Below are positions 1 through 21,016 of a DNA stretch of 22,841 nucleotides, in pieces. The notes beneath the pieces were generated by a model. That model had not been told where the DNA came from and ran no database searches. It was given only the letters and a program-made list of their open reading frames with translations. Source of the DNA: Kofleriaceae bacterium (GTDB lineage Bacteria; Myxococcota_A; Polyangia; Haliangiales; Haliangiaceae); NCBI GenBank assembly GCA_046597055.1, contig JBKJLC010000259.1, forward strand, positions 1 to 22,841. Reading direction: 5' to 3'. How positions within the stretch are numbered: the stretch's first letter is position 1; each line of letters begins with the position of its first letter. A program made the translations under genes and the position numbers.

Positions 1-166
1 GATCCTCGACCGTCTCGGAGTCCTTCGACAACTGCCAGACACTACCGCAGCCGATCGCGGCCGGTGCCGGCACACGCCGGCACGACCCTGGCACGACCGC
101 GCCGCACCTCGGTTCACGCGCCTCGGGTTTCGGCAGCTTGCGCCGCAGCTGTGGCCGCGCTGGCGC

Positions 167-182
167 TGGCGCAGCGGCTGCA
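167..182 (+). promoter_or_regulatory. Candidate sigma54 (-24/-12) promoter for the RHS gene
   Basis: TGGCGCAGCGGCTGCA fits GG-N10-GC and resembles TGGCACG-N4-TTGCW. It lies just upstream of ATG 195. Confidence 0.4.
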
Positions 183-194
183 ATCGCCGCTCGC

Positions 195-3100
195 ATGCAG
201 CTCAAGGTTTTACCCGGGTGCGCGCTCGCCGTCGCGGCGGGCGTGCTCGCCCTCGTCCACCCGACGCGCGCCGACGCGCAGGCCTCACCCCATGTCGATC
301 AGTTCAACGGCAGCTACACCGAGACGGTCGGGTTCGAGGTCCCCGGGTTCCGGGGCATCACGCCGCACCTGGCGGTCAGCTACGGCTCGAGCCGTCGCAA
401 CGGCCACGTCGGGGTCGGCTGGGCGCTCGAGGGGTTCGGCGTCATCGAGCGGATCGGCGTCGCGCGCGGCACGCCGCGGTACCAGGCCAGCGACGGCTTC
501 CTGCTCAACGGCGTCGAGCTGGTCGCCTGCCAGGTGGGGAGCGTGAGCCCGAGCTGCACGACCGGCGGCACCCACTCGACCAAGCTCGAGACCTACGAGC
601 GCATCCGGTTCGAGGCGGCGCCGAACCGGTGGACGGTGACCGCCAAGGACGGCACCCGCACGGTCTACGCCGCGATCCAGTCGGTCGCGGCCGGCACCTT
701 TCGCTGGGGCGTCGACACCGTCACCGACACCAGCAGCAACCTGGTCGACTATGCCTGGACCTGCTCTGACGACTGCTATCCCGATCGGATCAGCTACGGG
801 CAGGTGGTCGTCCAGCTGTACCGCGAGCCGCGCGGCGACGTGCTCACGACCGCGACCGGGGTTGGCCTGGTCACCAGCGGGCAGCGGCTGAAGTCGGTCG
901 ACGTCAAGGTGGCCGGCGCGCGCCTGCGCGCGTTTCGCCTGCAGTACCTGGACAGCCGCGCGACCAGCCGGTCGCTGCTCCAGCAGGTGACCGTCTACGA
1001 CCGTGACGCCACCGTCGACGCCGCCGGCAACGTCGCCGGCAACTCGCTGCCGGCGCCCCGGTTCAGCTACGCCGGCGCCGCGCCGGCGCTGCAGCCGGAG
1101 ACCTGGAGCACCTCGGCGACCGGCTTCTCCGACTCGCAGTACACGTGGTCGGCCGACGTCGACGGCGATGGCAAGACCGACATCGTCACCCGCGACGGTG
1201 CCAGCCTGCGGGTCGCCCGCTCGACCGGCCAGGCCTTCACGTATAGCACCTGGGAAGACAGCACGACCGGGTGGGGGACCGCCAACAACACCTGGCCGAT
1301 GGACGTCAACGCCGACGGCAAGACCGACATCGTCACCTACAACAGCGCCGGCCAGTTCCTGGTGGCGCGCTCGACCGGGACCTCGTTCGAGTACGAGAAC
1401 TGGGGGACCCAGACCGCGGGCTGGGGCGACGAGAACATGACCTGGCCGGCCGACGTCGACGGCAACGGCCGGATGGACCTGGTCTCGGTCGGCGGCGGCC
1501 AGCTGTACGTCGCGCGCTCGCTCGGCGACCGGTTCTTCTTCCAGGCCCCGTTCAACGCGATCGCGTTCGGCGGCGCCGGCTTCACCTGGGCGGTCGACGC
1601 CAACGGCGACGGCATGACCGACGTGGTCACCGGCAACGGCAGCAGCATCAACGTCGCCGTCTCGACCGGCACCTCGTTCGTCGGCGAGACCTGGCAGGCC
1701 GCGGCGTCGTCGTGGGGCGCGTCCGGGTTCACCTGGCCCGGGGACGTGAACGGGGACGGCCGCACCGACATCATCACCGCCAGCGGCGCGACCATCTCGG
1801 TCGCGCGCTCGACCGGCACCAGCTACGTGTGGGAGACCTGGACCACCGCGGCCTCCGGCTGGGGTGGCTCCGACTTCACCTGGCCGGCCGACGTCAACGG
1901 CGACGGCAAAACCGACCTGGTCACCGCCGATGGCAGCAACCTCCGGGTCGCGCTGTCGAACGGCTCGTCGTTCGCCTGGTCGACCTGGTCGACCACCGCG
2001 GGCCCGTTCGGCGGCGCTGCCTTCACCTGGCTGGTCGACGCCAACGGTGACGGCATGGCCGACCTGGTGACCGCCAACGGCGCGACCATCTCGGTCGCGC
2101 GCTCGACCGGGACCTCGTTCAAGTGGGAGGTCCTGACCACCAGCGCGTCGGGCTGGGGCGCGGCCAGCGTCACCTGGCTGGGCTGGTCGCGCTCGGCGAG
2201 CAGCTCGCGCAGCAAGGGTCGGGTCGACGTCACCGGCACCGGCGGCGCCTCGATCGTCACCTGGAACGGCGCGACCCTGAAGGTCTATCGCGCGTACGAC
2301 ACGGTGCCGACCGGCGCGACCCTCAACGTGCGCGACCTGCTGGTCCGGGTCGACACCGCGCTCGGCGGGATCCGGGTCGTCACCTACCAGCCGTCGACGC
2401 TGTGGCCGAACACGGCGGCGCCCCCGCCGGTCCAGATCGTGACCAAGGTCATCGAGATCGACGGGCGTGGCACCAGCGCGCCGACCTGGCTGTTCGGGTA
2501 TGCCGGCGGCCTGTACGACCGCGCCGAGCGCCGGTTCCTCGGCTTCCACTACGTCAAGCAGACGCTGCCGTGCATCGACGGCGAGCGCGCCTGTCCGTAC
2601 ATCGAGACCACGTTCAAGCAGAGCCACGGCTCGATCGCCAAGCCCGACGTGATCCGCACCTCGACTGGCGCCGGCCAGACCCTGACCTCCTCGACGATCG
2701 GCTACACCGAGAACGGCCTCACCATCCCGTACACCTCGCTCGAGACCTCGCGCGGCGAGTACGTCACCGATGGCGATGGCATCGGCCGCGGCACCTTCCG
2801 GACCACCGCCTACGACGGGTACGGCAACGTGACCCACGAGGTCAGCTACGGCGACGACAACCTCGGCGACGAGAAGAACGCCCGCTACCTCTATCGGCCC
2901 AACACCACCGCCTACATCGTGAACCGGCCCGCGGTCGTGCGCGCCTTCGACGGCACCGGCGCCGCGACCACGCCGAAGCTGTCCGAGACGCTCTACCACT
3001 ACGACGGCGCCAGCAGCTCGGACACGCCGCCGACTCGGGGCCTGATCACGGCCAAGCTCGAGTGGCTCGACACCCTCGACGCCTACGTCACCACCCGGTC

Positions 3101-6100
3101 CGAGTACGACAGCTTCGGCAACCTGACCGCCCAGGTCGATGCGCTCGGTGGCCGGGTCCAGACCGAGCACGATCCGGTCTTTCACCTGTACCCGACCACG
3201 ATCACCGATCCGCTGGGCCGCACGATCACGCAGACGTTCGACATCGTGTGCGGCGTGGTGAGGGGCGTGAAGGACCTGCGGGGCCAGAACACCACCACGA
3301 CCCTCGACGGGTTCTGCCGGCCCGTGATCCGGATCCTGCCCGGCGGTCAGGGCAACTTCGAGTCGCGCGGCTACGCCAACCTGGGTAGCGCCACCACGCA
3401 GTACCAGGAGGTCACGACCCCGGGCCCGACCGGGGCGCCCAACGGCTTCGTGCGCAGCTACTTCGACGGGCTCGGCCGGGTGTACCTGGTCGAGCGCACC
3501 GGCGGCGCCGCCGGCGTGACGATCCGCGCGGAGCAGGAGTACGACGCGCGCGGCAACCTGCGCCGGCAGGCCGCGCCTCATTACAGCACCGCGCCCGCGC
3601 AGTGGTCGACCCTGAGCTATGACGGCCTTGACCGCGTCGTCCGCGTGACCCACGCCGATCAGAGCTTCGCCACCCGCAGCTACGGGTTCGACCGCGGGAC
3701 CGCCGTGACCACCGATACCGACGAGCTCGGCCGGGCCAGCGTCCAGGTCGCCGACGCCTTCGGTCGGCTGACCGAGCGCCGGGAGCTGCTCGACAACACC
3801 TGGCGGGTGACGACCTACCGCTACGATCCGCGCGGCAACCTGAGCAAGGTCGTCGATCCGGCCGGCAACCTGACCGTGTACACGACCGACTCGCTGCAGC
3901 GGCGCACCCAGGTCGAGGATCCCGATCTCGGCACCTGGCGTTACCAGCTCGACGCGCTCGGTCGCACCACCGCGATCGTCGACGCCAAGGGTCAGCGGGT
4001 CGAGCATACCTACGATCCGCTGAGCCGCCGGCGCACGAAGACCACCCGGCACGCCAGCGGGACTGTCGAGGCGACCGTGACGTGGACCTACGACGAAGCT
4101 CGGACCGGGTACTTCAACACCGGCCTCCTGACCTCGATGACCGACAGCGCCGGCGCGGCGACCTTCGATCACGATCGCGCCGGCCGGCAGGTCAAGGGCA
4201 CCCGCGTCGTCGACGGCGTCGCGTACACGTTCCACAAGGCCTACGACAAGGTGGGCCGGCTGCTCGGGACCCGCTTCCCGGATGGCGACGTGGTCGGCCT
4301 CGATCCGACCACCGCGACCGGCACGGCGCTGCAGTACGACCTGGCCGGCCGGCTGATCGCGATCCCGGGCATCGTCGCCGGCGCCCAGTACACCGCCGAC
4401 GGTCAGCTCACCCATCACGTCAACCAGGACGGGACCACCACGACCCGCAGCTACGACCCGGCCCGCGGCTGGCTGGTCGGCATCAACACCGTGAAGGGCG
4501 CCACCACGCTCCAGAACCTGGTCTACACCCGCAGCCTGGTCGGTCAGGTCAGCCAGGTGACCAGCCCGTTCGCCGGCGAAGGCTGGAGCTACGGCTACGA
4601 TGCGCTCGACCGCCTGACCGCGGCGACCAGCCTGTCGAGCACGGCGCACAGCCAGAGCTTCCTCTACGACGCGGTCGGTAACCTCACGCTCAACTCGCGG
4701 GTCGGGACGTACGCATACCCGGCCCCCGGCACGCCGCGGCCGCACGCGGTGACCACCGCCGGCGCCAACAGCTACCAGTACGACGCCAACGGTAACCTGA
4801 CCAGCGGCGGCGGCCGGACCATCGGCTACGACGTCGAGAACCGGCCGGTCACCATCAACGGTGCCCAGTACCGCTACGACGGCGAGGGCGGGCGGGTGAA
4901 GGTGGTCGCGTCCGGCGTGACCACGATCCACCTCGGCGATGGCTACGAGGTCGCCGCCGGCGTCGTGACCAAGCACGTCGTGCTGGGCGGCGTCCTCATC
5001 GCGAAGAAGACCGGCGCCACGGTCACCGCGCTGCACACCGATCACCTCGGCTCGGTGCAGGCGATGACGGTCGCCGGCACCCTGGTCCAGCGCATCACCT
5101 ACCGGCCGTACGGCGAGCGGCTGGCCACCACCAGCACGGTCGGCCAGCCCCGCGGCTTCACCGGCCAGGAGCAGGACGCCACCGGCCTGCTCTACCTGCA
5201 CGCCCGCTACTACGACCCGATGCTCGGCCGCTTCCTGTCACCGGATCCGACCATCCCGTCGCCGCGCCTGCTCGGGCTCAACCGCTACGCGTACGCCCAG
5301 GACAACCCGGTCAACCTGGTCGACCTCGACGGTCTCGGCTTCTGGGGCAAGGTCGGTGACGTCTTCGAGAAGGGCTGGCAGCCGTTCGCCAACATCGGCG
5401 CGCTGGTCAAGACCGCGGCCGGCGAGAAGGGCCAGTCGACCGAGACCCGCCTGCGCGCGCTCGGCGCGATCGCTATCATCGGCAGCTCGGTCACGCTGAC
5501 CGTGCTCACCGGCGGCATCTCGAGCCCGCTGGCCTACGTGGCGGCCAACGCCGCGATCGGGTTCGCCACCGGCGCCGGCACCGCGGCGGTCATGGGTGCG
5601 TCGATGGACGACGCGCTGCGCGCGGGGCTCATCGGGGCGGCGGTCGCCGGGGCGACCTCGGCCCTGAGCGTGGCCTACAAGGCCCAGATCGGGCGCGGCG
5701 CGCTCGACTACGAGTACAACGTGCCCGACACGTTCGGTGTCAACAGTGACGCCGCCGGCATGGCCGACGAAGGCGGCTGGCTCACGTACCTCATCAACCG
5801 GGTGCCCGGCGCGCAAGCCTGGTCGGGCGCGCACGACTACTGGATGGGCAGCCTCGACTACGTGACCGGCACGCGGCCGGGCTTCGCGCTGGTCGGCTGG
5901 AAGATCTCGACCGGCTTCGCGTGGCTGATCGCGGCCGGGCCGCCGACGTTCGTCCAGACCTACGCGGCGCTGGCGGCCGAGACCGGCGTGAGCGCCGCGA
6001 TCGCCGGCGGCATGACCGCGACCGATCACCGCCGCGACGGCATCGGCGCGTCGACCCTCGGCTTCCTCGCCAACAGCTCGGGCGAGGCGGTCGGGATCCG

Positions 6101-6170
6101 CTCCGGCGGCCACGCGCTGCGCGGGGGCGGGGGCGGCAGCGCGTCGCTGCTCGCGATCGATCCGCTGTGA
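195..6170 (+). CDS. Secreted RHS/YD-repeat protein with SpvB-like N-terminus, FG-GAP/VCBS repeats and RHS core (TcB+TcC-like fusion, polymorphic toxin candidate)
   Basis: ATG at 195 gives a signal peptide (MQLKVLPGCALAVAAGVLALVHPTRADA|QA). SpvB-like motif P-x-L-x-x-S-Y-x-S...G-x-x-G-x-GW. Seven DxN/DGDG-type repeats plus one degenerate. TcdB-mid-like YAGGLYDRAERRFLGF. Many YD repeats. RHS core HTDHLGS...FTGQEQDATGLLYLHARYYDPMLGRFLSPDP...NRYAYAQDNPVNLVDLDG. Confidence 0.92.
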   Translation: MQLKVLPGCALAVAAGVLALVHPTRADAQASPHVDQFNGSYTETVGFEVPGFRGITPHLAVSYGSSRRNGHVGVGWALEGFGVIERIGVARGTPRYQASDGFLLNGVELVACQVGSVSPSCTTGGTHSTKLETYERIRFEAAPNRWTVTAKDGTRTVYAAIQSVAAGTFRWGVDTVTDTSSNLVDYAWTCSDDCYPDRISYGQVVVQLYREPRGDVLTTATGVGLVTSGQRLKSVDVKVAGARLRAFRLQYLDSRATSRSLLQQVTVYDRDATVDAAGNVAGNSLPAPRFSYAGAAPALQPETWSTSATGFSDSQYTWSADVDGDGKTDIVTRDGASLRVARSTGQAFTYSTWEDSTTGWGTANNTWPMDVNADGKTDIVTYNSAGQFLVARSTGTSFEYENWGTQTAGWGDENMTWPADVDGNGRMDLVSVGGGQLYVARSLGDRFFFQAPFNAIAFGGAGFTWAVDANGDGMTDVVTGNGSSINVAVSTGTSFVGETWQAAASSWGASGFTWPGDVNGDGRTDIITASGATISVARSTGTSYVWETWTTAASGWGGSDFTWPADVNGDGKTDLVTADGSNLRVALSNGSSFAWSTWSTTAGPFGGAAFTWLVDANGDGMADLVTANGATISVARSTGTSFKWEVLTTSASGWGAASVTWLGWSRSASSSRSKGRVDVTGTGGASIVTWNGATLKVYRAYDTVPTGATLNVRDLLVRVDTALGGIRVVTYQPSTLWPNTAAPPPVQIVTKVIEIDGRGTSAPTWLFGYAGGLYDRAERRFLGFHYVKQTLPCIDGERACPYIETTFKQSHGSIAKPDVIRTSTGAGQTLTSSTIGYTENGLTIPYTSLETSRGEYVTDGDGIGRGTFRTTAYDGYGNVTHEVSYGDDNLGDEKNARYLYRPNTTAYIVNRPAVVRAFDGTGAATTPKLSETLYHYDGASSSDTPPTRGLITAKLEWLDTLDAYVTTRSEYDSFGNLTAQVDALGGRVQTEHDPVFHLYPTTITDPLGRTITQTFDIVCGVVRGVKDLRGQNTTTTLDGFCRPVIRILPGGQGNFESRGYANLGSATTQYQEVTTPGPTGAPNGFVRSYFDGLGRVYLVERTGGAAGVTIRAEQEYDARGNLRRQAAPHYSTAPAQWSTLSYDGLDRVVRVTHADQSFATRSYGFDRGTAVTTDTDELGRASVQVADAFGRLTERRELLDNTWRVTTYRYDPRGNLSKVVDPAGNLTVYTTDSLQRRTQVEDPDLGTWRYQLDALGRTTAIVDAKGQRVEHTYDPLSRRRTKTTRHASGTVEATVTWTYDEARTGYFNTGLLTSMTDSAGAATFDHDRAGRQVKGTRVVDGVAYTFHKAYDKVGRLLGTRFPDGDVVGLDPTTATGTALQYDLAGRLIAIPGIVAGAQYTADGQLTHHVNQDGTTTTRSYDPARGWLVGINTVKGATTLQNLVYTRSLVGQVSQVTSPFAGEGWSYGYDALDRLTAATSLSSTAHSQSFLYDAVGNLTLNSRVGTYAYPAPGTPRPHAVTTAGANSYQYDANGNLTSGGGRTIGYDVENRPVTINGAQYRYDGEGGRVKVVASGVTTIHLGDGYEVAAGVVTKHVVLGGVLIAKKTGATVTALHTDHLGSVQAMTVAGTLVQRITYRPYGERLATTSTVGQPRGFTGQEQDATGLLYLHARYYDPMLGRFLSPDPTIPSPRLLGLNRYAYAQDNPVNLVDLDGLGFWGKVGDVFEKGWQPFANIGALVKTAAGEKGQSTETRLRALGAIAIIGSSVTLTVLTGGISSPLAYVAANAAIGFATGAGTAAVMGASMDDALRAGLIGAAVAGATSALSVAYKAQIGRGALDYEYNVPDTFGVNSDAAGMADEGGWLTYLINRVPGAQAWSGAHDYWMGSLDYVTGTRPGFALVGWKISTGFAWLIAAGPPTFVQTYAALAAETGVSAAIAGGMTATDHRRDGIGASTLGFLANSSGEAVGIRSGGHALRGGGGGSASLLAIDPL
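1140..2290 (+). repeat. Intragenic tandem FG-GAP/VCBS-like repeats, ~49 aa (147 nt) period
   Basis: Repeating unit TW-x-x-D-V-N/D-G-D-G-x-T-D-I/L-V-T...VARSTG-x-SF...W. An identical 33-nt stretch occurs at 1784-1816 and 2078-2110, 294 nt (2 x 147) apart. Confidence 0.9.
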
Positions 6171-13714: not shown

Positions 13715-14809
13715 TCAGCCCGGGCGCAGGTCGAAGTAGTCGCTCATCGCCTGGCGGCCGGCGTCGATCAGCGCGCGCCGGCGCGGCTCGCTCATGCCGA
13801 ACTCGAGCGCGCTGTAGCTGCGGGCCGGCAGCCGGCAGATCTCGCCCATCGCCATGCACGCCTCGATCACGGCGCGATCGTGCGAGTTCAGGATCGTCTC
13901 GACGATGCGCTGCACGCGGCGCAGCGGCTTGAGCTGGAGGAACCCGGCGAGCGCGCCGCGGACGTCGGGCATCGCGCCCGCCACCGGCAGGCTCTCGTCG
14001 ATGAGGAGCCCGAGGTTGGGCACGCCGGTCGGCCCGGCGTCGCCCATCATCTCCAGCACGTCGGCGAGCCGCGACGCCAGCAGGTGGATCGGGAAGTTCG
14101 ACAGCACGCCGCCGTCGATCAGCACGTGGCCGGTGAGATCGCGGCCGCGGTACGCGCCCCAGCCGCGCTCCCAGACCACCTCCTGGAACACCAGCGGGAT
14201 CGACATCGAGGCGCGCACCGCCCACACCACCGGGCACGCCGGCGCGGTGCGGGCGTTGAGCACCAGCATCTCGCCGCTGGTGGTGTCGGACACTGTGATC
14301 GACAGATCGCGGCCGGTCACGCGCGCGAAGTCGGCGAAGGTCGCGGTGCCCATCCCGCGGTGGCGGGCCTCGAGCTTGGCGCCCAGCCAGCTGCGCATGC
14401 GATCGCCGGCGAACGGACCGCCCTTCTCGAGCAGCGAGAACAGCATCCGGAAGCCGCTCACCGCCATCAGGCCCGCGACCAGGCCGCGCTCGATGCGGGC
14501 CTCGGTGCTGGCCGGCACCAGCGGCAGATCGACCGCGTCGAGCAGCTGCTGCAAGGTCGAGGTCCGGACCTCCTCGGGGTCGAACTGGGCCGGCACGTCG
14601 AGGAAGTCCGACATCCCGGTGATCTCGCCATGGGCGCGCTCGAGCTCGTCGGCGCGATAGCCGGCCGCGACCAGCGTCGCCACCACCGCGCCGGCCGAGG
14701 TGCCGACGAACCGGCGCGCGGTGTGGCCGCGCCGCTCGAACTCGATCAGCGCGCCGACGAAGGCAGCGCCCTTCGCGCCGCCGCCCTCGAACGCCACGTC
14801 GAACTCCAT
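13715..14809 (-). CDS. Patatin-like phospholipase
   Basis: GGGAKG oxyanion motif, GTSAG nucleophile elbow, ASMSIP and DGGVLSNFP catalytic Asp. Confidence 0.93.
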   Translation of the reverse strand: MEFDVAFEGGGAKGAAFVGALIEFERRGHTARRFVGTSAGAVVATLVAAGYRADELERAHGEITGMSDFLDVPAQFDPEEVRTSTLQQLLDAVDLPLVPASTEARIERGLVAGLMAVSGFRMLFSLLEKGGPFAGDRMRSWLGAKLEARHRGMGTATFADFARVTGRDLSITVSDTTSGEMLVLNARTAPACPVVWAVRASMSIPLVFQEVVWERGWGAYRGRDLTGHVLIDGGVLSNFPIHLLASRLADVLEMMGDAGPTGVPNLGLLIDESLPVAGAMPDVRGALAGFLQLKPLRRVQRIVETILNSHDRAVIEACMAMGEICRLPARSYSALEFGMSEPRRRALIDAGRQAMSDYFDLRPG

Positions 14810-14845: not shown

Positions 14846-16063
14846 TCAGGTCCGCTCGATCAAGGTGGCCACGCCCAGCCCGGCGGCGCCGCTGACCGCG
14901 GCGATGCCGTAGCGGCCGCCGGTGCGCTCGAGCTCGTCGACGGCGTTGGCCAGCAGGATGGCGCCGGTGGCGCCGAACGCGTGGCCGAGCGCGATGGTGC
15001 CGCCGCCCGGGTTGAGCCGGGCCGGGTCGAGCCCGAGATCGCGGCGCAGGCGCACGCACAGCGCGGCGAACGCCTCGGCGAACTCGTAGACCGCGATGTC
15101 GTCTGCGGCGAGCCCGGCCCGCGCGAGCACGGCCACGATCGCGTCCTGGCCGGCGGTGAGCATCGTCACCGGGTCGCCGGCGCAGGTCGCGGTGGCGACG
15201 ATGCGCGCGCGCGGCGCCAGGCCGGTGCGCGCGGCTGCGTCGGCGTCGCCGATCACGACGAGGGCAGCGGCGTCGGCCAGGCTCGGCGAGCTGGCCCGGG
15301 TGTGCAGGTGGCGCACCCCACCCGTGGCCAGCGCCGGGTGGCGCGCGATCGCGACCGCGTCCTGGCCGGCGGCGCCCAGCGCGGCGAACGCCGGGGGCAG
15401 CGCGGCCAGCTCGGCCGCGGTCGGCGCCCAGTCGATCAGCTCGTCGCGGTCGAGCAGCACCTCGCCGTCGCGACCGCGGACCGGCACCACCGAGCGGGCC
15501 GCCCGACCGTCGAGCCAGGCCGCGCGGGCCCGCGCGCGGGTGGTGAGCGCGTAGGCGTCGAGCGCCTCGCGCGGCGTGTCGTCGAGAGTGGCGACCAGAT
15601 CGGCGGCGACGCCCATGTGGATGCCGCCGGCCGCGGCGCGCACGGCCGGATCGGTCCACAGCGGCCCACCGTCCGAGAACATCGGCACCCGCGACACCGA
15701 CTCGACGCCGCCCGCGAGCGCGAGGCCCAGGTCACCGGCTCGCACCCGCGCGGCCGCGAGGTTCACCGCGTCGAGGCCTGACGCGCAGAACCGGTTGATC
15801 ATCACGCCGGGCGTGCGCGGGTCGAGCCCGGCGACCAGCGCGGCGGTGCGCGCCAGGTTGCCGCCTTGCTCGCCGGTCTGGCTGGCGCAACCGAGCACGA
15901 GGTCGTCGACCGCGTCGGCGGGCAGCCCGCGCGCGCGCAGCGCGTCGATCAGCCCGACCACCAGCGCCAGCGGGGTCACGCCAGCCAGCGCGCCGCGCGC
16001 CGAGCCCTTGCTGCGCGGGGTGCGTACGGTCGCCAGCACGAACGAATCGCGGATCGACGTCAT
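14846..16063 (-). CDS. Thiolase (acetyl-CoA C-acyltransferase) family protein with non-canonical active site
   Basis: VRTPR, INRFCASG (nucleophilic Cys), GGVES and NPGGGTIALGHAFGATG are present. NEAF is AEAF and C-x-G-G-G is VSGAAG. Start reassigned to ATG 16063. Confidence 0.9.
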   Translation of the reverse strand: MTSIRDSFVLATVRTPRSKGSARGALAGVTPLALVVGLIDALRARGLPADAVDDLVLGCASQTGEQGGNLARTAALVAGLDPRTPGVMINRFCASGLDAVNLAAARVRAGDLGLALAGGVESVSRVPMFSDGGPLWTDPAVRAAAGGIHMGVAADLVATLDDTPREALDAYALTTRARARAAWLDGRAARSVVPVRGRDGEVLLDRDELIDWAPTAAELAALPPAFAALGAAGQDAVAIARHPALATGGVRHLHTRASSPSLADAAALVVIGDADAAARTGLAPRARIVATATCAGDPVTMLTAGQDAIVAVLARAGLAADDIAVYEFAEAFAALCVRLRRDLGLDPARLNPGGGTIALGHAFGATGAILLANAVDELERTGGRYGIAAVSGAAGLGVATLIERT

Positions 16064-16219
16064 GGGGCCTCGCTCCTGGTGGGCTCGTGCAGGTCCGTCA
16101 CTCCCGGCCCGTCTCGACGCTGCCCGGCCGGGAGTGGCCGTCATCGTCGGGGGCGCTCATTATTCAGCGTGACCTGTCGGCGTGGGCCGGTATACGGTTG
16201 GCGACGGGGGAGATAAGCC

Positions 16220-17464
16220 ATGGTCGAGCCAGGACGCGTCGCACGCGGTCAGGTGGTCGAAGGGAAGTACCAGCTGGTGGCGCTGGTCGCCAAGGGCGAG
16301 CACGGCGAGCTCTGGCGCGGCGAGCTGCGCGGGGCCGGCGGCTTCGCGCGGCCGGTGGCAATCAAGGTGGTGCCGGAGGAGCGGGTCCGCGAGCGCCTCG
16401 ATGCCGCCCGGTTCCTCGCGCGGGTCCGCCGCAGCGCGGTGCTCGACCACGCCAACATCGTGCAGGTCAATGACTTCGCGCGCGATCGAGCCGGTCACTA
16501 TCACATCGTGATGCCGTGGGTCGATGGCCTGTCCCTGCGCGAGCTGGTCCGCGGGATCGAGCGGCTCGGCCTGCGCACGCCGTGGCCGGTCGCGGTCGCG
16601 ATCGGGGTCGGCGTGCTGCGCGGGCTGGCGTCGGCGCACGCGCACGTCGATGTCGACGGCGATCCCGATCCGGTGCTGCACGGCGAGCTGTCGCCCGACC
16701 GGATCCTGATCGGGATCAACGGCATCGCCCGGCTCGGCGGCTACGGCCTGCTCGGCGCGACCCGCGCGGGGCAGGCGGCCGCGGCCGACGTGCGCGGGTA
16801 CCAGGCGCCCGAGGTCGCGCAGCACGCGGCGTGGTACGTGGCCGCCGACGTGTTCGGCGTCGGGGCGGTGCTGTGGGAGGCGCTGGCGGGCCGGCCGCCG
16901 TTCGGCGATGCCCGGGCTGCCGACGGGTTCCGGGCCGGGACCGCCACGCTGCCGTCGCTGGGGCGGGTGCGCCCCGGGTTGCCGTCGCGCCTGGTCGCGG
17001 CGATCGATCGTGCGGTCAGGCTGCGCGCCGTGGACCGGTTCGCCACCGCCGATGACATGGCCGGCGAGCTCGCGGCGCTGCTCGCCGGGGTCGGCTGGCA
17101 GCGCGGGCCCCAGGCCGATCTCGGCGGTGCGGTGTGCGAGGCCCGGGCCGCGCTCGGTCGCGCGTCGCCGGGGAGCGACAGCGCCGACCTGTTCGAGATC
17201 GCGCCGGCCGACATCATCGGCGTGGTCGAGGTGCCCGAGGGCCATCCCGGCAACCCGATCTTGCTCAACCACCTCGCCGCCGAGCCGCTGTCCGACGACG
17301 ATCTGCTGGCGGTGGACGACGGCGTCGTCGTGGGCGAGGTCGTCGACAGCGATGCCGAGACCGGTGACTACCCGGTCGCTGCGCCCGACGCCGACGAGCC
17401 GATCGAGCTGGTGGTGCGGGCCGGCGCCCGCGCTGCCACGCCCGCGCAGGGCGCGCAGGTCTGA
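16220..17464 (+). CDS. Hanks-type Ser/Thr kinase-like protein, probable pseudokinase, with acidic C-terminal tail
   Basis: VAIK, LDHANIVQV, GYQAPE and ADVFGVGAVLWEAL-x-G-x-x-PF are present. The catalytic loop reads HGELSPDRIL and the DFG position reads GYG. SD-like GGGGGAG upstream. Confidence 0.85.
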   Translation: MVEPGRVARGQVVEGKYQLVALVAKGEHGELWRGELRGAGGFARPVAIKVVPEERVRERLDAARFLARVRRSAVLDHANIVQVNDFARDRAGHYHIVMPWVDGLSLRELVRGIERLGLRTPWPVAVAIGVGVLRGLASAHAHVDVDGDPDPVLHGELSPDRILIGINGIARLGGYGLLGATRAGQAAAADVRGYQAPEVAQHAAWYVAADVFGVGAVLWEALAGRPPFGDARAADGFRAGTATLPSLGRVRPGLPSRLVAAIDRAVRLRAVDRFATADDMAGELAALLAGVGWQRGPQADLGGAVCEARAALGRASPGSDSADLFEIAPADIIGVVEVPEGHPGNPILLNHLAAEPLSDDDLLAVDDGVVVGEVVDSDAETGDYPVAAPDADEPIELVVRAGARAATPAQGAQV

Positions 17465-17581: not shown

Positions 17582-19057
17582 CTATGGAGTACGGTCTCTC
17601 AGCGCCGACCCCGGCGCCCAGCACGCGTGGGTGCCGTGGCAGACCCGCTCCGGCAGCGCGAGCCGCGTCACCGGCCCGTCGGCGATCCGGGCCGCGTCGA
17701 ACAGCCAGACCTCGCTGGCGTCGCGCTTCAGGTCGGTGGTGATCGTCACCACCCAGCCGTCGTCCTCGGCGGTGCCGTCCGGGCGCGGCGCCATCTGGCC
17801 CTCGCTCAGATACACGCCGTCATCGCACTGGAAGCGCTGGCGGTCGCCGCCGTCGACGTCGAGGCGGGCGATGCCGTCGAACAGGAACCAGCCCGGCTTC
17901 GCGGTCATCGCCCAGGCGTGGCGATGCCGGCGGCCGGCGACCCGGCCGTTCACCGCCGGGAACTCGGTGATGTCGTCGCCGAGCGACGCCTCGCGGGTGC
18001 GCCCGGTGCGCAGGTCGAAGCGCCAGCGGTGCGGCCGGGTGCCCATCGCCTGCAGGTCGACCATCTTCTTGAGCGGACCCCAGGGACCGTCGGCCGGATC
18101 TGGCCGCGGCATCGGGTCGGCCTGGCGATAGCCGTCGAGCACGATCTCGTCGCCGTCCTCGTAGGCATTGATGAAGTGCAGCACGTAGGTCGGCTCGGCC
18201 TCGAACCAGCGGACCTCGCTGGCCCCGCCGCGCCGCGGGAGGATCCCGAACCGCGACGGCAGCTCGCGGTAGAAGCGCGGTCGGTGGCCGCCCTGGGTCA
18301 GCAGCGCGGGATCCCAGAACAGCGGGAAGTCGTTCAGGATCGCGAAGTGCTCGGTGAACGCCATGTCGTGGGGCAGGCGCGGCCCTGGCAGCGGCACGTC
18401 GACGAGGTGCGCCAGCGCCCCGCCCGGATCGACCACGCCGTACTTCAGGTACGGCGCGTCCTTGGCATAGCTGAAGAACAGCAGCTCGCCGGTGTGCTCG
18501 TCGAGCTTGGGGTGCGCCGAGACTCCCCAGCCCGGCGGTGCCCACGGCGCGGTGCCCGCTGGCGCCAGGGTCTCGGCGTCATGCTGGTAGACGTCGCCAC
18601 ACTGATAGAACGTGGTGAGCGCGCGCCCGCCGTGCACGACGACGTCGGTCGACGACGCATCCTTCATGCGGCCGCGCGCGCCCCAGCCGTCGCGGACCGA
18701 CCGCGCCGGGGCCTCGATGATGCCCGCCCACTGCGGTGCGCCCGCGGCGAGCTCGGCGGCGAGGCCGGCGGTGCGCACCATGCGGTTGCGGTAGCGCGTG
18801 CGCCCGCCCGCGAACCGGACCGCGTGCAGCATGCCGTCGCCGTCGAACGGGTGGTAGCGCCCGATGCTGGGCAAGAGCGGGTTCTCGGTGTTGCGCAGGT
18901 ACACGCCGTCGAGCTCGGCCGGCACCGCGCCGGCCAGGACCTCGAGATCGTCGGCGTCGTACTCGACCGTGTTGGGCCGCCAGGCCCCGGTGCGGTAAGG
19001 ATGATCGTCGTCGGCGGGCAGGCTCGACGTCCAGCGGTGATGCTCGGTGACCTTCAT
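17582..19057 (-). CDS. Carotenoid cleavage oxygenase / RPE65 / lignostilbene dioxygenase family
   Basis: VPAELDGVYLRN, HPFDGDGM and four Fe-binding His (SAHPK, LPHDM, VLHFIN, GTHACW), plus EFP and EDDGW. Start ATG 19057 overlaps the upstream thiolase stop (ATGA). Confidence 0.95.
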   Translation of the reverse strand: MKVTEHHRWTSSLPADDDHPYRTGAWRPNTVEYDADDLEVLAGAVPAELDGVYLRNTENPLLPSIGRYHPFDGDGMLHAVRFAGGRTRYRNRMVRTAGLAAELAAGAPQWAGIIEAPARSVRDGWGARGRMKDASSTDVVVHGGRALTTFYQCGDVYQHDAETLAPAGTAPWAPPGWGVSAHPKLDEHTGELLFFSYAKDAPYLKYGVVDPGGALAHLVDVPLPGPRLPHDMAFTEHFAILNDFPLFWDPALLTQGGHRPRFYRELPSRFGILPRRGGASEVRWFEAEPTYVLHFINAYEDGDEIVLDGYRQADPMPRPDPADGPWGPLKKMVDLQAMGTRPHRWRFDLRTGRTREASLGDDITEFPAVNGRVAGRRHRHAWAMTAKPGWFLFDGIARLDVDGGDRQRFQCDDGVYLSEGQMAPRPDGTAEDDGWVVTITTDLKRDASEVWLFDAARIADGPVTRLALPERVCHGTHACWAPGSALRDRTP

Positions 19058-20298
19058 GCGACCCCCACGACGAACGCGCACGCGGTGGTGCCGCTGCCGC
19101 CGATGTTGAGCGTGACGAACCGACGCGCGCCGTCGACCTGGTAGTCGCCGGCGGTGCCCTCGACCTGGCGGGCGGCGTCGAGCACCATCCGCACCCCCGA
19201 CGCGCCGACCGGATGGCCGGCGCCGATCAGCCCGCCTGACGGGTTGATCGGAAAGCGGCCGCCCATCACGGTGGCGCCATCCTCGATCGCGCGCCAGGCC
19301 TCGCCGGCCGCGGTGACCCCGAGGTGATCGATCGCCAGGTACTCGGTGACCGTGAAGCAGTCGTGGACCTCGGCGCCGGCCAGCTGGTCCGGGCCGCTCA
19401 CGCCGGCCCGGCGATACGCGTCGGTGATCGCCTCGCGCAGGTGCGGCAGCAGGTAGGGCGCACCCTCCGCGCGGGTCAGCTTGGCGGCCAGCCCGAGCCC
19501 GGCGGTGCGGTGACCCCAGCCGTCGATGCGCGCCATGGCCTCGAACGACCGCCCGGTGCGCGCGGCGTGCGCGCGGGCGAACGCCGCGGTCGCGACCACC
19601 AGCGCCACCGCGCCGTCGGTGATCTGGCCGCAGTCGAGCCGGCGCAGCCGACCCTCGACGTGCGGGTTGCGCTCGTCGTCGGTCCAGCCGGCCCCGAACG
19701 CGTCGTCGGCGAAGCGCCATCCCCGGGCCTGCGCGCGCGGGTTGCGGCGCGCGTTGCCGAGGTTCTTGCCGGCGATCGCGGCCAGGTGATACCCGCTGAG
19801 CCCGCCGCGTCGATCGATCTCGTCGCCGATGAGGGCGAACATGTGCGGCCACAGGAAGCGCGCGCCGTCGCCCTCGTGGCCGGCCCACGCCGCGGTGCCC
19901 AGGTGACGGGCCGCGACCTCGCCCGGCACGTTGCGCTCCTGCTCGATGCCGAGCACCAGCGCGCAGTCGGCGCGGCCGGCCTCCAGCTCGGCGGTGGCCG
20001 CGAGCAGCGCGACCGAGCCCGACGCGCAGGCCGCCTCGTGACGGGCGGCGGGCACCCCCCAAAGCGCCGGTCGCACGGTGGCCGGCAAGGCGCCCAGCTG
20101 GGCCTGGCCGGCGAACAGCTCGCCGAACGCGTTGCCGACGTGGATCGCGCCGATCGCGGCGACGTCGACCTGGGCGGCGTCGAGCCCGCCATCGATCGCC
20201 TCGGCGGCGAGGGTGGTCAGCCCGCCGCCCTCGCGCGCGAGGTTGCGCGCGAAGTCAGTCTGGTAGCCGCCGAGGATGTAGACCGGGGTCGGGGGCAT
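19054..20298 (-). CDS. SCP2-type thiolase-like protein (acetyl-CoA acetyltransferase/lipid-transfer family)
   Basis: HEAACASG, EVHDCFT (HDCF signature of SCP2 thiolases), INPSGGLIGAGHPVGASG, TLNIGGS. Confidence 0.92.
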   Translation of the reverse strand: MPPTPVYILGGYQTDFARNLAREGGGLTTLAAEAIDGGLDAAQVDVAAIGAIHVGNAFGELFAGQAQLGALPATVRPALWGVPAARHEAACASGSVALLAATAELEAGRADCALVLGIEQERNVPGEVAARHLGTAAWAGHEGDGARFLWPHMFALIGDEIDRRGGLSGYHLAAIAGKNLGNARRNPRAQARGWRFADDAFGAGWTDDERNPHVEGRLRRLDCGQITDGAVALVVATAAFARAHAARTGRSFEAMARIDGWGHRTAGLGLAAKLTRAEGAPYLLPHLREAITDAYRRAGVSGPDQLAGAEVHDCFTVTEYLAIDHLGVTAAGEAWRAIEDGATVMGGRFPINPSGGLIGAGHPVGASGVRMVLDAARQVEGTAGDYQVDGARRFVTLNIGGSGTTACAFVVGVA

Positions 20299-20443: not shown

Positions 20444-20974
20444 ATGACGACCCGCGCCGATGTCCTCGCCCCGCTCCAGGTGCTCGACGAGCACGGCACC
20501 GAGGTGACCCTCGCGACCTTGTGGCGCGAGCGCACCGCGGTGCTGCCGCTGGTCCGCCACTTCGGTTGACTGTTCTGCCGCGAGCAAGTGGTGCAGTTGC
20601 ACCACGCCAATGACCAGATCGAGGCGACCGGCGCCCGGCTCCACGTGATCGGCAACGGCGCGCCGATGTTCATCGCGGGCTTCCGCGAGTCCACCGGCTT
20701 CCGCGGGCCGATCTACACCGACCCCAGCCTGGCGGTGTACCGCGCCGCCGAGATGCGGCGCGGCCTCGCCACCATCCTCCATCCGCGCGGGCTGCTCAAC
20801 GCGGCGCGGGCGGTGCGGGCCGGCTTCCGTCAGGGCCGGACCCAGGGTGACGCCACCCAGACCGGCGGCGTGCTCATCGTGACGCCGGCCGGCGAGATCG
20901 CGTACCAGTACACGTCACGCGCCGCCGGCGACCATCCGGCCACCAGCGAGATCCTCGCGGCGCTGGCCGCGTAG
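20444..20974 (+). CDS. Peroxiredoxin-like (AhpC-TSA_2 / SelL / PRXL2) selenoprotein, 176 aa, with Sec at in-frame TGA 20567-20569
   Basis: Translation from ATG 20444: MTTRADVLAPLQVLDEHGTEVTLATLWRERTAVLPLVRHFG*LFCREQVVQL...VIGNG...YTDPSLAVY...QGDATQTGGVLIV...GDHP. The TGA occupies the first Cys of the family RHxG-CxxC motif, and a SECIS-like hairpin follows. Confidence 0.88.
20588..20605 (+). promoter_or_regulatory. Bacterial SECIS-like stem-loop
   Basis: GTGGTGC-AGTT-GCACCAC: perfect 7-bp stem with a G/U-containing apical loop, starting 18 nt after the in-frame TGA. Confidence 0.75.
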
Positions 20975-20981
20975 CGGGGTC

Positions 20982-21016
20982 AGAGGGTGGGAAGCTTCGC
21001 TTCCCACCCTCTCTTT
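20982..21016 (+). terminator. Strong hairpin, probable intrinsic terminator between convergent genes
   Basis: AGAGGGTGGGAAGC-TTC-GCTTCCCACCCTCT (perfect 14-bp stem, 20982-21012) followed by CTTT, 7 nt after the stop at 20974. Confidence 0.7.

Follow-up and report, generated by a model that had tools for sequence, protein, structure and literature searches.

The gene at positions 20444..20974 on the forward strand of a contig from a Kofleriaceae bacterium (GenBank assembly GCA_046597055.1, contig JBKJLC010000259.1, 22,841 nucleotides, referred to here as the window) probably encodes a selenoprotein of 176 amino acids that gene callers have cut short. On comparison with its homologs, the in-frame UGA at codon 42 is almost certainly read as selenocysteine (Sec). 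The best explanation overall, held with nearly the same assurance, is that the product would be a Sec42 thioredoxin-fold selenoenzyme of the PRXL2/SelU/SelL-related family. The gene is a further member of an already known kind of selenoprotein, for which both the mechanism and the family type have been described. No principle is changed, and the result is an annotation fix rather than a new mechanism.

The reading frame runs from ATG 20444 to the TAG at 20972-20974, and on translation its sole interruption is the TGA at 20567-20569 (forward strand). This probable Sec codon falls in a column that holds TGA or Cys in homologs, and alignment places it within the active-site motif R38-H39-F40-G41-U42-L43-F44-C45 (UxxC; 20555..20578, forward strand). 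The initial annotation had observed that the open reading frame (ORF) track starts the gene at 20588, while the same frame extends up to ATG 20444 and is broken only by the TGA in RHFG-TGA-LFC; its coordinates are exact. ATG 20444 is taken as the probable start, and homologs begin within about one codon of it. A plain ORF list gives the gene as 128 amino acids from GTG 20588, and the protein collection that was searched holds it solely as a 127-amino-acid fragment (P0002, with NCBI and Logan as sources) from which the active site is missing. This truncated ORF (20588..20974, forward strand) is without both redox residues. The expectation that pipelines would truncate the gene was borne out beyond this genome, as 53 of the best 120 protein hits are cut in the same way, and Sec use in the Myxococcota is therefore likely to be undercounted. 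The correction thus restores to a small redox-enzyme gene the active site that gene finders drop. According to the ORF list the gene appears to stand alone, with both flanking genes on the opposite strand. No sigma-70 promoter or consensus terminator was called at the gene, and there is no Rfam match in this region.

Homologs were pooled from 72 loci, and removal of one that does not align at the TGA column and of five duplicates left 66 distinct loci, including this one. The column holds TGA at 45 of these and TGC or TGT at 21, with no other codon. The initial annotation had predicted Cys at this column with conservation on both sides, and had reckoned with Trp or another residue there, or with a lack of conservation upstream, as arguments against the Sec reading; the loci show Cys codons or TGA solely, and both flanks are conserved. 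Against 17 close homologs, amino-acid identity is 62% over the 32 upstream codons versus 68% downstream, with normal synonymous change upstream. The 33 codons before the TGA are free of stops in all 45 TGA loci. The six codons from the TGA to the GTG, including Cys45, are 85% identical. The best 20 of 36 matches among 41 related genomes carry one TGA each. The best 120 protein hits comprise 67 full-length sequences, all with C at the column, and 53 that begin at columns 43-56; a database C was not taken as a Cys codon, given that U may be displayed as C, and codon counts come from DNA. Identity across the 67 full-length proteins is 57% upstream versus 50% downstream of the column. The residues QLH at 51-53 are found in 51 of the 53 truncated hits, and QL[HR] in 6 of the 67 full-length hits. 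The nearest titled homologs, which are 63-69% identical, come from records named Kofleriaceae or Myxococcales bacterium, which points to a myxobacterium as the probable host.

A candidate bacterial SECIS with a 7-bp stem and an AGUU loop lies at 20588..20605 on the forward strand, overlapping codons V49-H54, and was assigned by consensus criteria and by conservation. This GTGGTGC-AGTT-GCACCAC hairpin begins 18 nt past the TGA, as the initial annotation had it, and its loop begins 25 nt past the TGA. It is present in both the minimum free energy (MFE) and centroid folds and has an energy of -11.2 kcal/mol alone. The bSECIS model, as drawn in Fig. 2A of PMC13188914, has a loop of 3-9 nt, a stem of 4-16 bp, a G in loop positions 1-2 and a spacing of 16-37 nt, and the available text of that source gives an energy threshold of at most -7.5 kcal/mol. 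Scored with our own script, the hairpin has a loop of 4, a stem of 7, G as the second loop letter, a spacing of 25 and the energy of -11.2 kcal/mol. By itself, the hairpin is within chance and proves little, as its stability is ordinary for this genome. The 59-nt hairpin region has z = -1.2 versus shuffles, and of the 2299 ordinary TGA stops that end long ORFs in this genome of 72% GC, 225 are followed by a SECIS-model hairpin at least as stable and 602 (26%) pass the -7.5 threshold. Hairpin energy was therefore rejected as evidence, given this z and the roughly 10% of ordinary TGA stops that are equally stable. The exact core at the same offset follows none of the 2299 stops. A looser scan for TGA followed by a GCAG-type loop returned 250 hits, nearly all in non-coding frames, and was set aside as uninformative.

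Rather than for its energy, the hairpin was counted as real because its conservation is restricted to TGA-bearing homologs. The core GCAGTTGC is found at +24 to +31 in 40 of 45 TGA loci versus none of 21 Cys loci. It forces the Leu codon TTG, which stands at the hairpin in 40 of 45 TGA loci versus 1 of 21 Cys loci and makes up 3.1% of Leu codons in this genome (1243 long ORFs on 120 of 303 contigs). Synonymous change among the 17 close homologs is absent from the six codons of the hairpin (0 of 90 same-residue comparisons), compared with 24-30% in the flanks. Across the 45 TGA loci, 91.7% of stem cells are paired, versus 18-64% in slid registers, and 5 of the 7 stem pairs have changes on both sides, with compensatory pairs such as G-C/C-G (30/12) and U-A/C-G (27/15). 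The covariation score was reached by 0 of 500 shuffles, a control that is inflated by kinship of the rows, and was far lower in slid registers. The generic -7.5 kcal threshold is failed by 6 of the 45 TGA loci when a strict single stem is used, and passed by 7 of the 21 Cys loci. Since the tree, from which one short Cys locus was left out, places 15 of its 20 Cys copies in one paralog clade, the contrast of 40/45 with 0/21 rests on few independent events. With rows that are related and one such clade, the independent evidence comes from the few Cys copies that fall among Sec copies in the tree (L028, L068, L073 and the long-branched L038), all of which are without the core. Comparison of the homologs demonstrates selection on the hairpin at the RNA level. 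The family is a clean example for teaching how an RNA signal dictates protein sequence: the SECIS fixes the residues Q-L-H/R along with the rare codon TTG, and this constraint disappears upon the change from Sec to Cys.

The initial annotation took the Sec reading to imply a selA/selB/selC/selD system, and saw a genome lacking it as an argument against the reading; all four components exceed their family cut-offs in this assembly. The matches are selA at 538.7 bits (cut-off 267.9), selB at 307.2 bits (cut-off 242.25), selD at 301.5 bits (cut-off 125) and tRNA-Sec (selC) at 70.4 (cut-off 47), with the anticodon UCA. In the order selA, selB, selC, selD they sit on contigs C160, C55, C267 and C206, which are similar in GC (0.70-0.74). 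As the assembly, rated 94% complete, is also rated 7.55% contaminated, it is an assumption that the machinery and the gene belong to one cell. The selD gene (contig C206, position 17549, forward strand; locus L005) is a selenoprotein gene too, with an in-frame TGA in RGGG-U-AAK; the hairpin after this TGA differs from the one described above, and its loop starts with G. In a phylum sample of 251 genomes, 74 match the NCBIfam model NF040769, discussed below, and 153 match selA. A TGA-bearing match is found in 47 of the 74 genomes, with the TGA position confirmed at 13 fetched loci, and selA is present in 47 of these 47, versus 15 of the 27 genomes that have stop-free copies solely; kin among these genomes are not independent. 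No match to selA or tRNA-Sec, nor one to selB above its cut-off, was found in genome G022, the source of the TGT copy at L028, and G164, the source of the Cys copy at L068, has no selA match. An exception is the fragmented genome G001 (1770 contigs, with 8000 bases withheld), which has a TGA gene and a tRNA-Sec, with no match to selA or over-cut-off match to selB. Together, the Cys/TGA column, the conserved hairpin, the machinery and the co-occurrence with selA support the proposal that the UGA is recoded. Following established bacterial Sec biology, as given in the available part of PMC9312934, SelB-GTP-Sec-tRNA(Sec) would bind the hairpin 18 nt past the UGA and insert Sec at codon 42.

Three other accounts of the TGA were weighed. 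If it were a true stop, there would be two genes, one for a 41-amino-acid peptide and one for a 128-amino-acid protein that restarts at GTG 20588/20591, with the GTGGTG serving as a start signal. Gene callers give this form in the 53 truncated hits, and the GTG GTG is conserved in close relatives. However, full-length Cys orthologs exist, and the six strongly conserved codons between the TGA and the GTG, with Cys45 among them, would be untranslated. In addition, the GTG within the stem varies (GTC, CTC, CTG) along with compensatory partners, and the invariable company of selA with TGA copies would go unexplained; this arrangement is very improbable. A different genetic code, with UGA as Trp or Gly, or non-specific read-through would account for the open frame and nothing more. 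Given that 2313 of this genome's 3085 long coding-like ORFs terminate in TGA and that the homologous column holds Cys, never Trp or Gly, the chance of such a code or read-through is negligible.

The remaining account puts the TGA down to a mistake in sequencing or assembly, or to a pseudogene with a recent nonsense mutation. It draws on a lone TGA that the same assembly has at an rpoC Cys codon and that is shared by 0 of 17 related rpoC loci read. This account is nonetheless extremely unlikely for the gene described here, as 44 further distinct loci spread over the phylum have the TGA in that column and purifying selection acts on both sides of the codon. The initial annotation had also considered that reads might show TGC or TGT; contigs of 4 of 4 runs cover the codon and no other letter is listed, these being DNA contigs of one study that may include the source sample. 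Near-identical DNA is found in the soil metagenomes of one study, and one RNA run listed contains 0.06 of the words. The rpoC TGA (contig C173 of this assembly, G000, position 3907, reverse strand; loci L085/L088) replaces a zinc-finger Cys codon in KDYE-[TGA]-NCGKY. The codon is TGC in 16 relatives and TGT in 1 (17 other loci read of 19), and the site was therefore rejected as a Sec site. Among the 27 of 41 genomes with an rpoC match, a stop within an unbroken match is found in this genome alone; the match in G018 is split in two. Judged against these relatives, the TGA in rpoC, an essential gene, most likely arose as an error of assembly, and the selenoprotein gene does not resemble such a case.

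With UGA read as Sec, the initial annotation expected a 176-amino-acid UxxC redox enzyme of the AhpC-TSA_2/PRXL2/SelL thioredoxin-fold type with the motif R-H-x-G-C-x-x-C, and the family models, motif and predicted fold agree with this. The read-through translation is 176 residues long with U42 and C45, and its residues 9-173 match positions 4-172/173 of NF040769 ('SelL-related redox protein') at 120.6 bits (cut-off 120), a marginal score that depends on writing U as C; a DNA search that keeps the stop reaches 111.6 bits. The match to PF13911 (AhpC-TSA_2) is at 66.5 bits (cut-off 27), and that to PF00578, at 24.1 bits, is below its cut-off of 26. AlphaFold2, given 50 sequences and C for U, yields a model with a thioredoxin fold (pLDDT 95.7, pTM 0.91). 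The top fold match of the model is human PGFS/PRXL2B (E 3.3e-13, TM 0.81), followed by ResA and Bcp/PrxQ at similar E-values. The same human protein, prostamide/prostaglandin F synthase, is the sole real sequence match among solved structures (E 9.9e-15). RHFG-U-LFC aligns to RRFG-C44-VV-C47 of PGFS, with U42, C45 and R38 corresponding to C44, C47 and R40, and an alignment of 50 full-length homologs shows no variation at R38, H39, F40, G41, C/U42 or C45. Membership in the PRXL2 / SelU / AhpC-TSA_2 group is thus indicated by the PF13911 score, the predicted thioredoxin fold and R-x-x-G-C/U-x-x-C. Residues 35-42 read PLVRHFGU, with His rather than Thr or Ser three before U, and so are without PxxxTxxC/U, the peroxidatic motif of peroxiredoxins (PMC13188914, in the part available). 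The product is probably cytoplasmic.

The family is a curated one, known here by its model name; near the whole of the NF040769 model was matched, and many other matches to it carry one TGA. No literature naming NF040769 or 'SelL-related' was found in a search of sources other than BSepDB data and bioRxiv supplements, and the family is not named in the available parts of PMC1976440, the Haft preprint (10.1101/2022.07.06.499078) or, by term look-up, PMC13326102. The available parts of PMC9312934 and PMC13188914 do catalogue selenoproteins under the names 'Prx-like thiol:disulfide oxidoreductase' (PF00578, UxxC/UxxU) and 'AhpC/TSA family protein' (pfam13911 / cd02970, UxxS). These catalogued bacterial Prx-like selenoproteins are of the same Pfam families and have Sec likewise at the first redox position, but the AhpC-TSA_2 entry is UxxS whereas the protein here is UxxC. 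The portion available of the 2008 GOS supplement (PMC2398784) holds predicted selenoproteins with RHLGU-x-x-C and RHFGU-x-x-C, which are likened to this one by motif alone, unaligned, and of which the RHFGU ones may be eukaryotic.

Human PRXL2B (PGFS; PDB 9US9, 9USA) shares R-x-F-G-C-x-x-C and the fold with the protein here at about 25% identity. It has Cys where Sec stands here, and its Arg41 and Pro167 are replaced by His and Ala, respectively. PRXL2B acts by reduction of the PGH2/prostamide H2 endoperoxide, no prostaglandin substrate is known in this organism, and the likeness is one of fold and motif. Eukaryotic SelU/PRXL2 genes have a SECIS in the 3'-UTR, whereas the gene here has an in-frame SECIS of the bacterial kind. 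SelU3, which is PGFS, has Sec forms in invertebrates according to the available text of PMC3473315. Eukaryotic selenoprotein L (SelL), from which the NCBIfam model takes its name, shares the Prx-like fold. The protein here, in which codon 45 is TGC, does not carry the UxxU motif of SelL.

A catalytic cycle can be proposed from the UxxC motif and the mechanism of human PRXL2B. The Sec42 selenolate would attack an O-O or S-S bond of a peroxide or disulfide, Cys45 would resolve the Sec42 intermediate to give a selenenyl-sulfide, and an NAD(P)H-dependent thioredoxin-type system would re-reduce it. In the part available of PMC12938796, Cys44 of PRXL2B is modelled attacking the endoperoxide beside Arg40/Arg41 and forming a disulfide with the second Cys. 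By this analogy a UxxC redox cycle is very probable, while there is about an even chance that an organic or lipid (endo)peroxide is the main substrate. The same selenoprotein might instead act mainly as a protein-disulfide oxidoreductase of the thioredoxin/TlpA-like kind rather than as a peroxide reductase, given that the model places the UxxC at a helix start after the strand 31-36, that ResA and Bcp/PrxQ come next after PGFS among the fold matches, and that PxxxTxxU is absent. A chief role in disulfide exchange is nevertheless somewhat doubtful, as PGFS/PRXL2B is both the sole real match among solved structures and the top fold match, and the Arg two-plus residues before the motif, which PGFS uses near the peroxide, is invariant here.

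A gene for a 2x[4Fe-4S] + FAD pyridine-nucleotide-disulfide oxidoreductase is placed head-to-head with the family gene at 12 of the 44 other TGA loci and at none of the 21 Cys loci. In relatives this neighbour (L108:1031-3823, reverse strand; also L012, L013, L015, L016, L019-L024, L027 and L037) encodes a protein of about 930 amino acids, which is hydrophobic over an N-terminal stretch, carries two 4Fe-4S motifs as well as a Pyr_redox FAD domain, and has a long tail rich in Pro; this genome has two unlinked homologs, on contigs C25 and C36. From its position, the [4Fe-4S]-FAD reductase is a plausible electron donor to the selenoprotein, and the linkage may also be explained by shared ancestry or mere synteny among relatives of one order. 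It is a long shot that this myxobacterial clade would be a Sec-using bacterial counterpart of PRXL2B/SelU3, acting as a reductase of lipid hydroperoxides or cyclic endoperoxides, with this dedicated, membrane-anchored reductase to recharge it. If true, soil predators would have an undescribed two-protein Sec pathway of peroxide reduction, which would also offer a tractable model for the SelU family, still unexplained at present.

In the window, a thiolase-like gene (PRK06289, over cut-off) and then a gene of the carotenoid-oxygenase/RPE65 family lie at 17582-20298 on the reverse strand and diverge from the selenoprotein gene. The thiolase, carotenoid-oxygenase-like, lipoprotein-like and M14 peptidase neighbours have no match in the 1.5-2.5 kb flanks of the 65 other loci, and the neighbourhood gave no clue to function. 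Elsewhere in the window are a second thiolase-like gene (14846-16144), a Ser/Thr kinase-like ORF (16220-17464, forward strand) and a patatin-like ORF (13715-14809, reverse strand) with weak, below-cut-off matches to phospholipase families. A protein of about 2000 amino acids (138-6170, forward strand) has repeated motifs of the DVNGDG type, which we take to be FG-GAP/VCBS-like, and presumably an RHS/YD-repeat core. Just past the stop of the selenoprotein gene, a perfect 14-bp inverted repeat (20982..21012) forms the start of a repeated extragenic element of about 115 nt. The segment 20975-21100 gives 79 blastn hits in the genome, with no Rfam match, and has very high summed depth in soil metagenome contigs; the element lies outside the recoding signal and is not part of it.

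A codon-usage scan of the genome yielded 137 candidates, of which most are neighbouring genes that share a frame. It picked up the gene described here, a SelW-like gene and the rpoC TGA but not selD, and is therefore no census. The SelW-like gene (contig C145, position 63241, forward strand; locus L086) is a second likely missed selenoprotein, a SelT/SelW/SelH-like protein of about 75 amino acids with C-V-M-U, which matches TIGR02174 at 34.4 bits (cut-off 34.2). A third likely missed selenoprotein (contig C30, position 9797, forward strand; loci L041/L087) is Prx-like, with FYRGFY-U-HSC (UxxC) and a weak NF040769 match of 36.2 bits.
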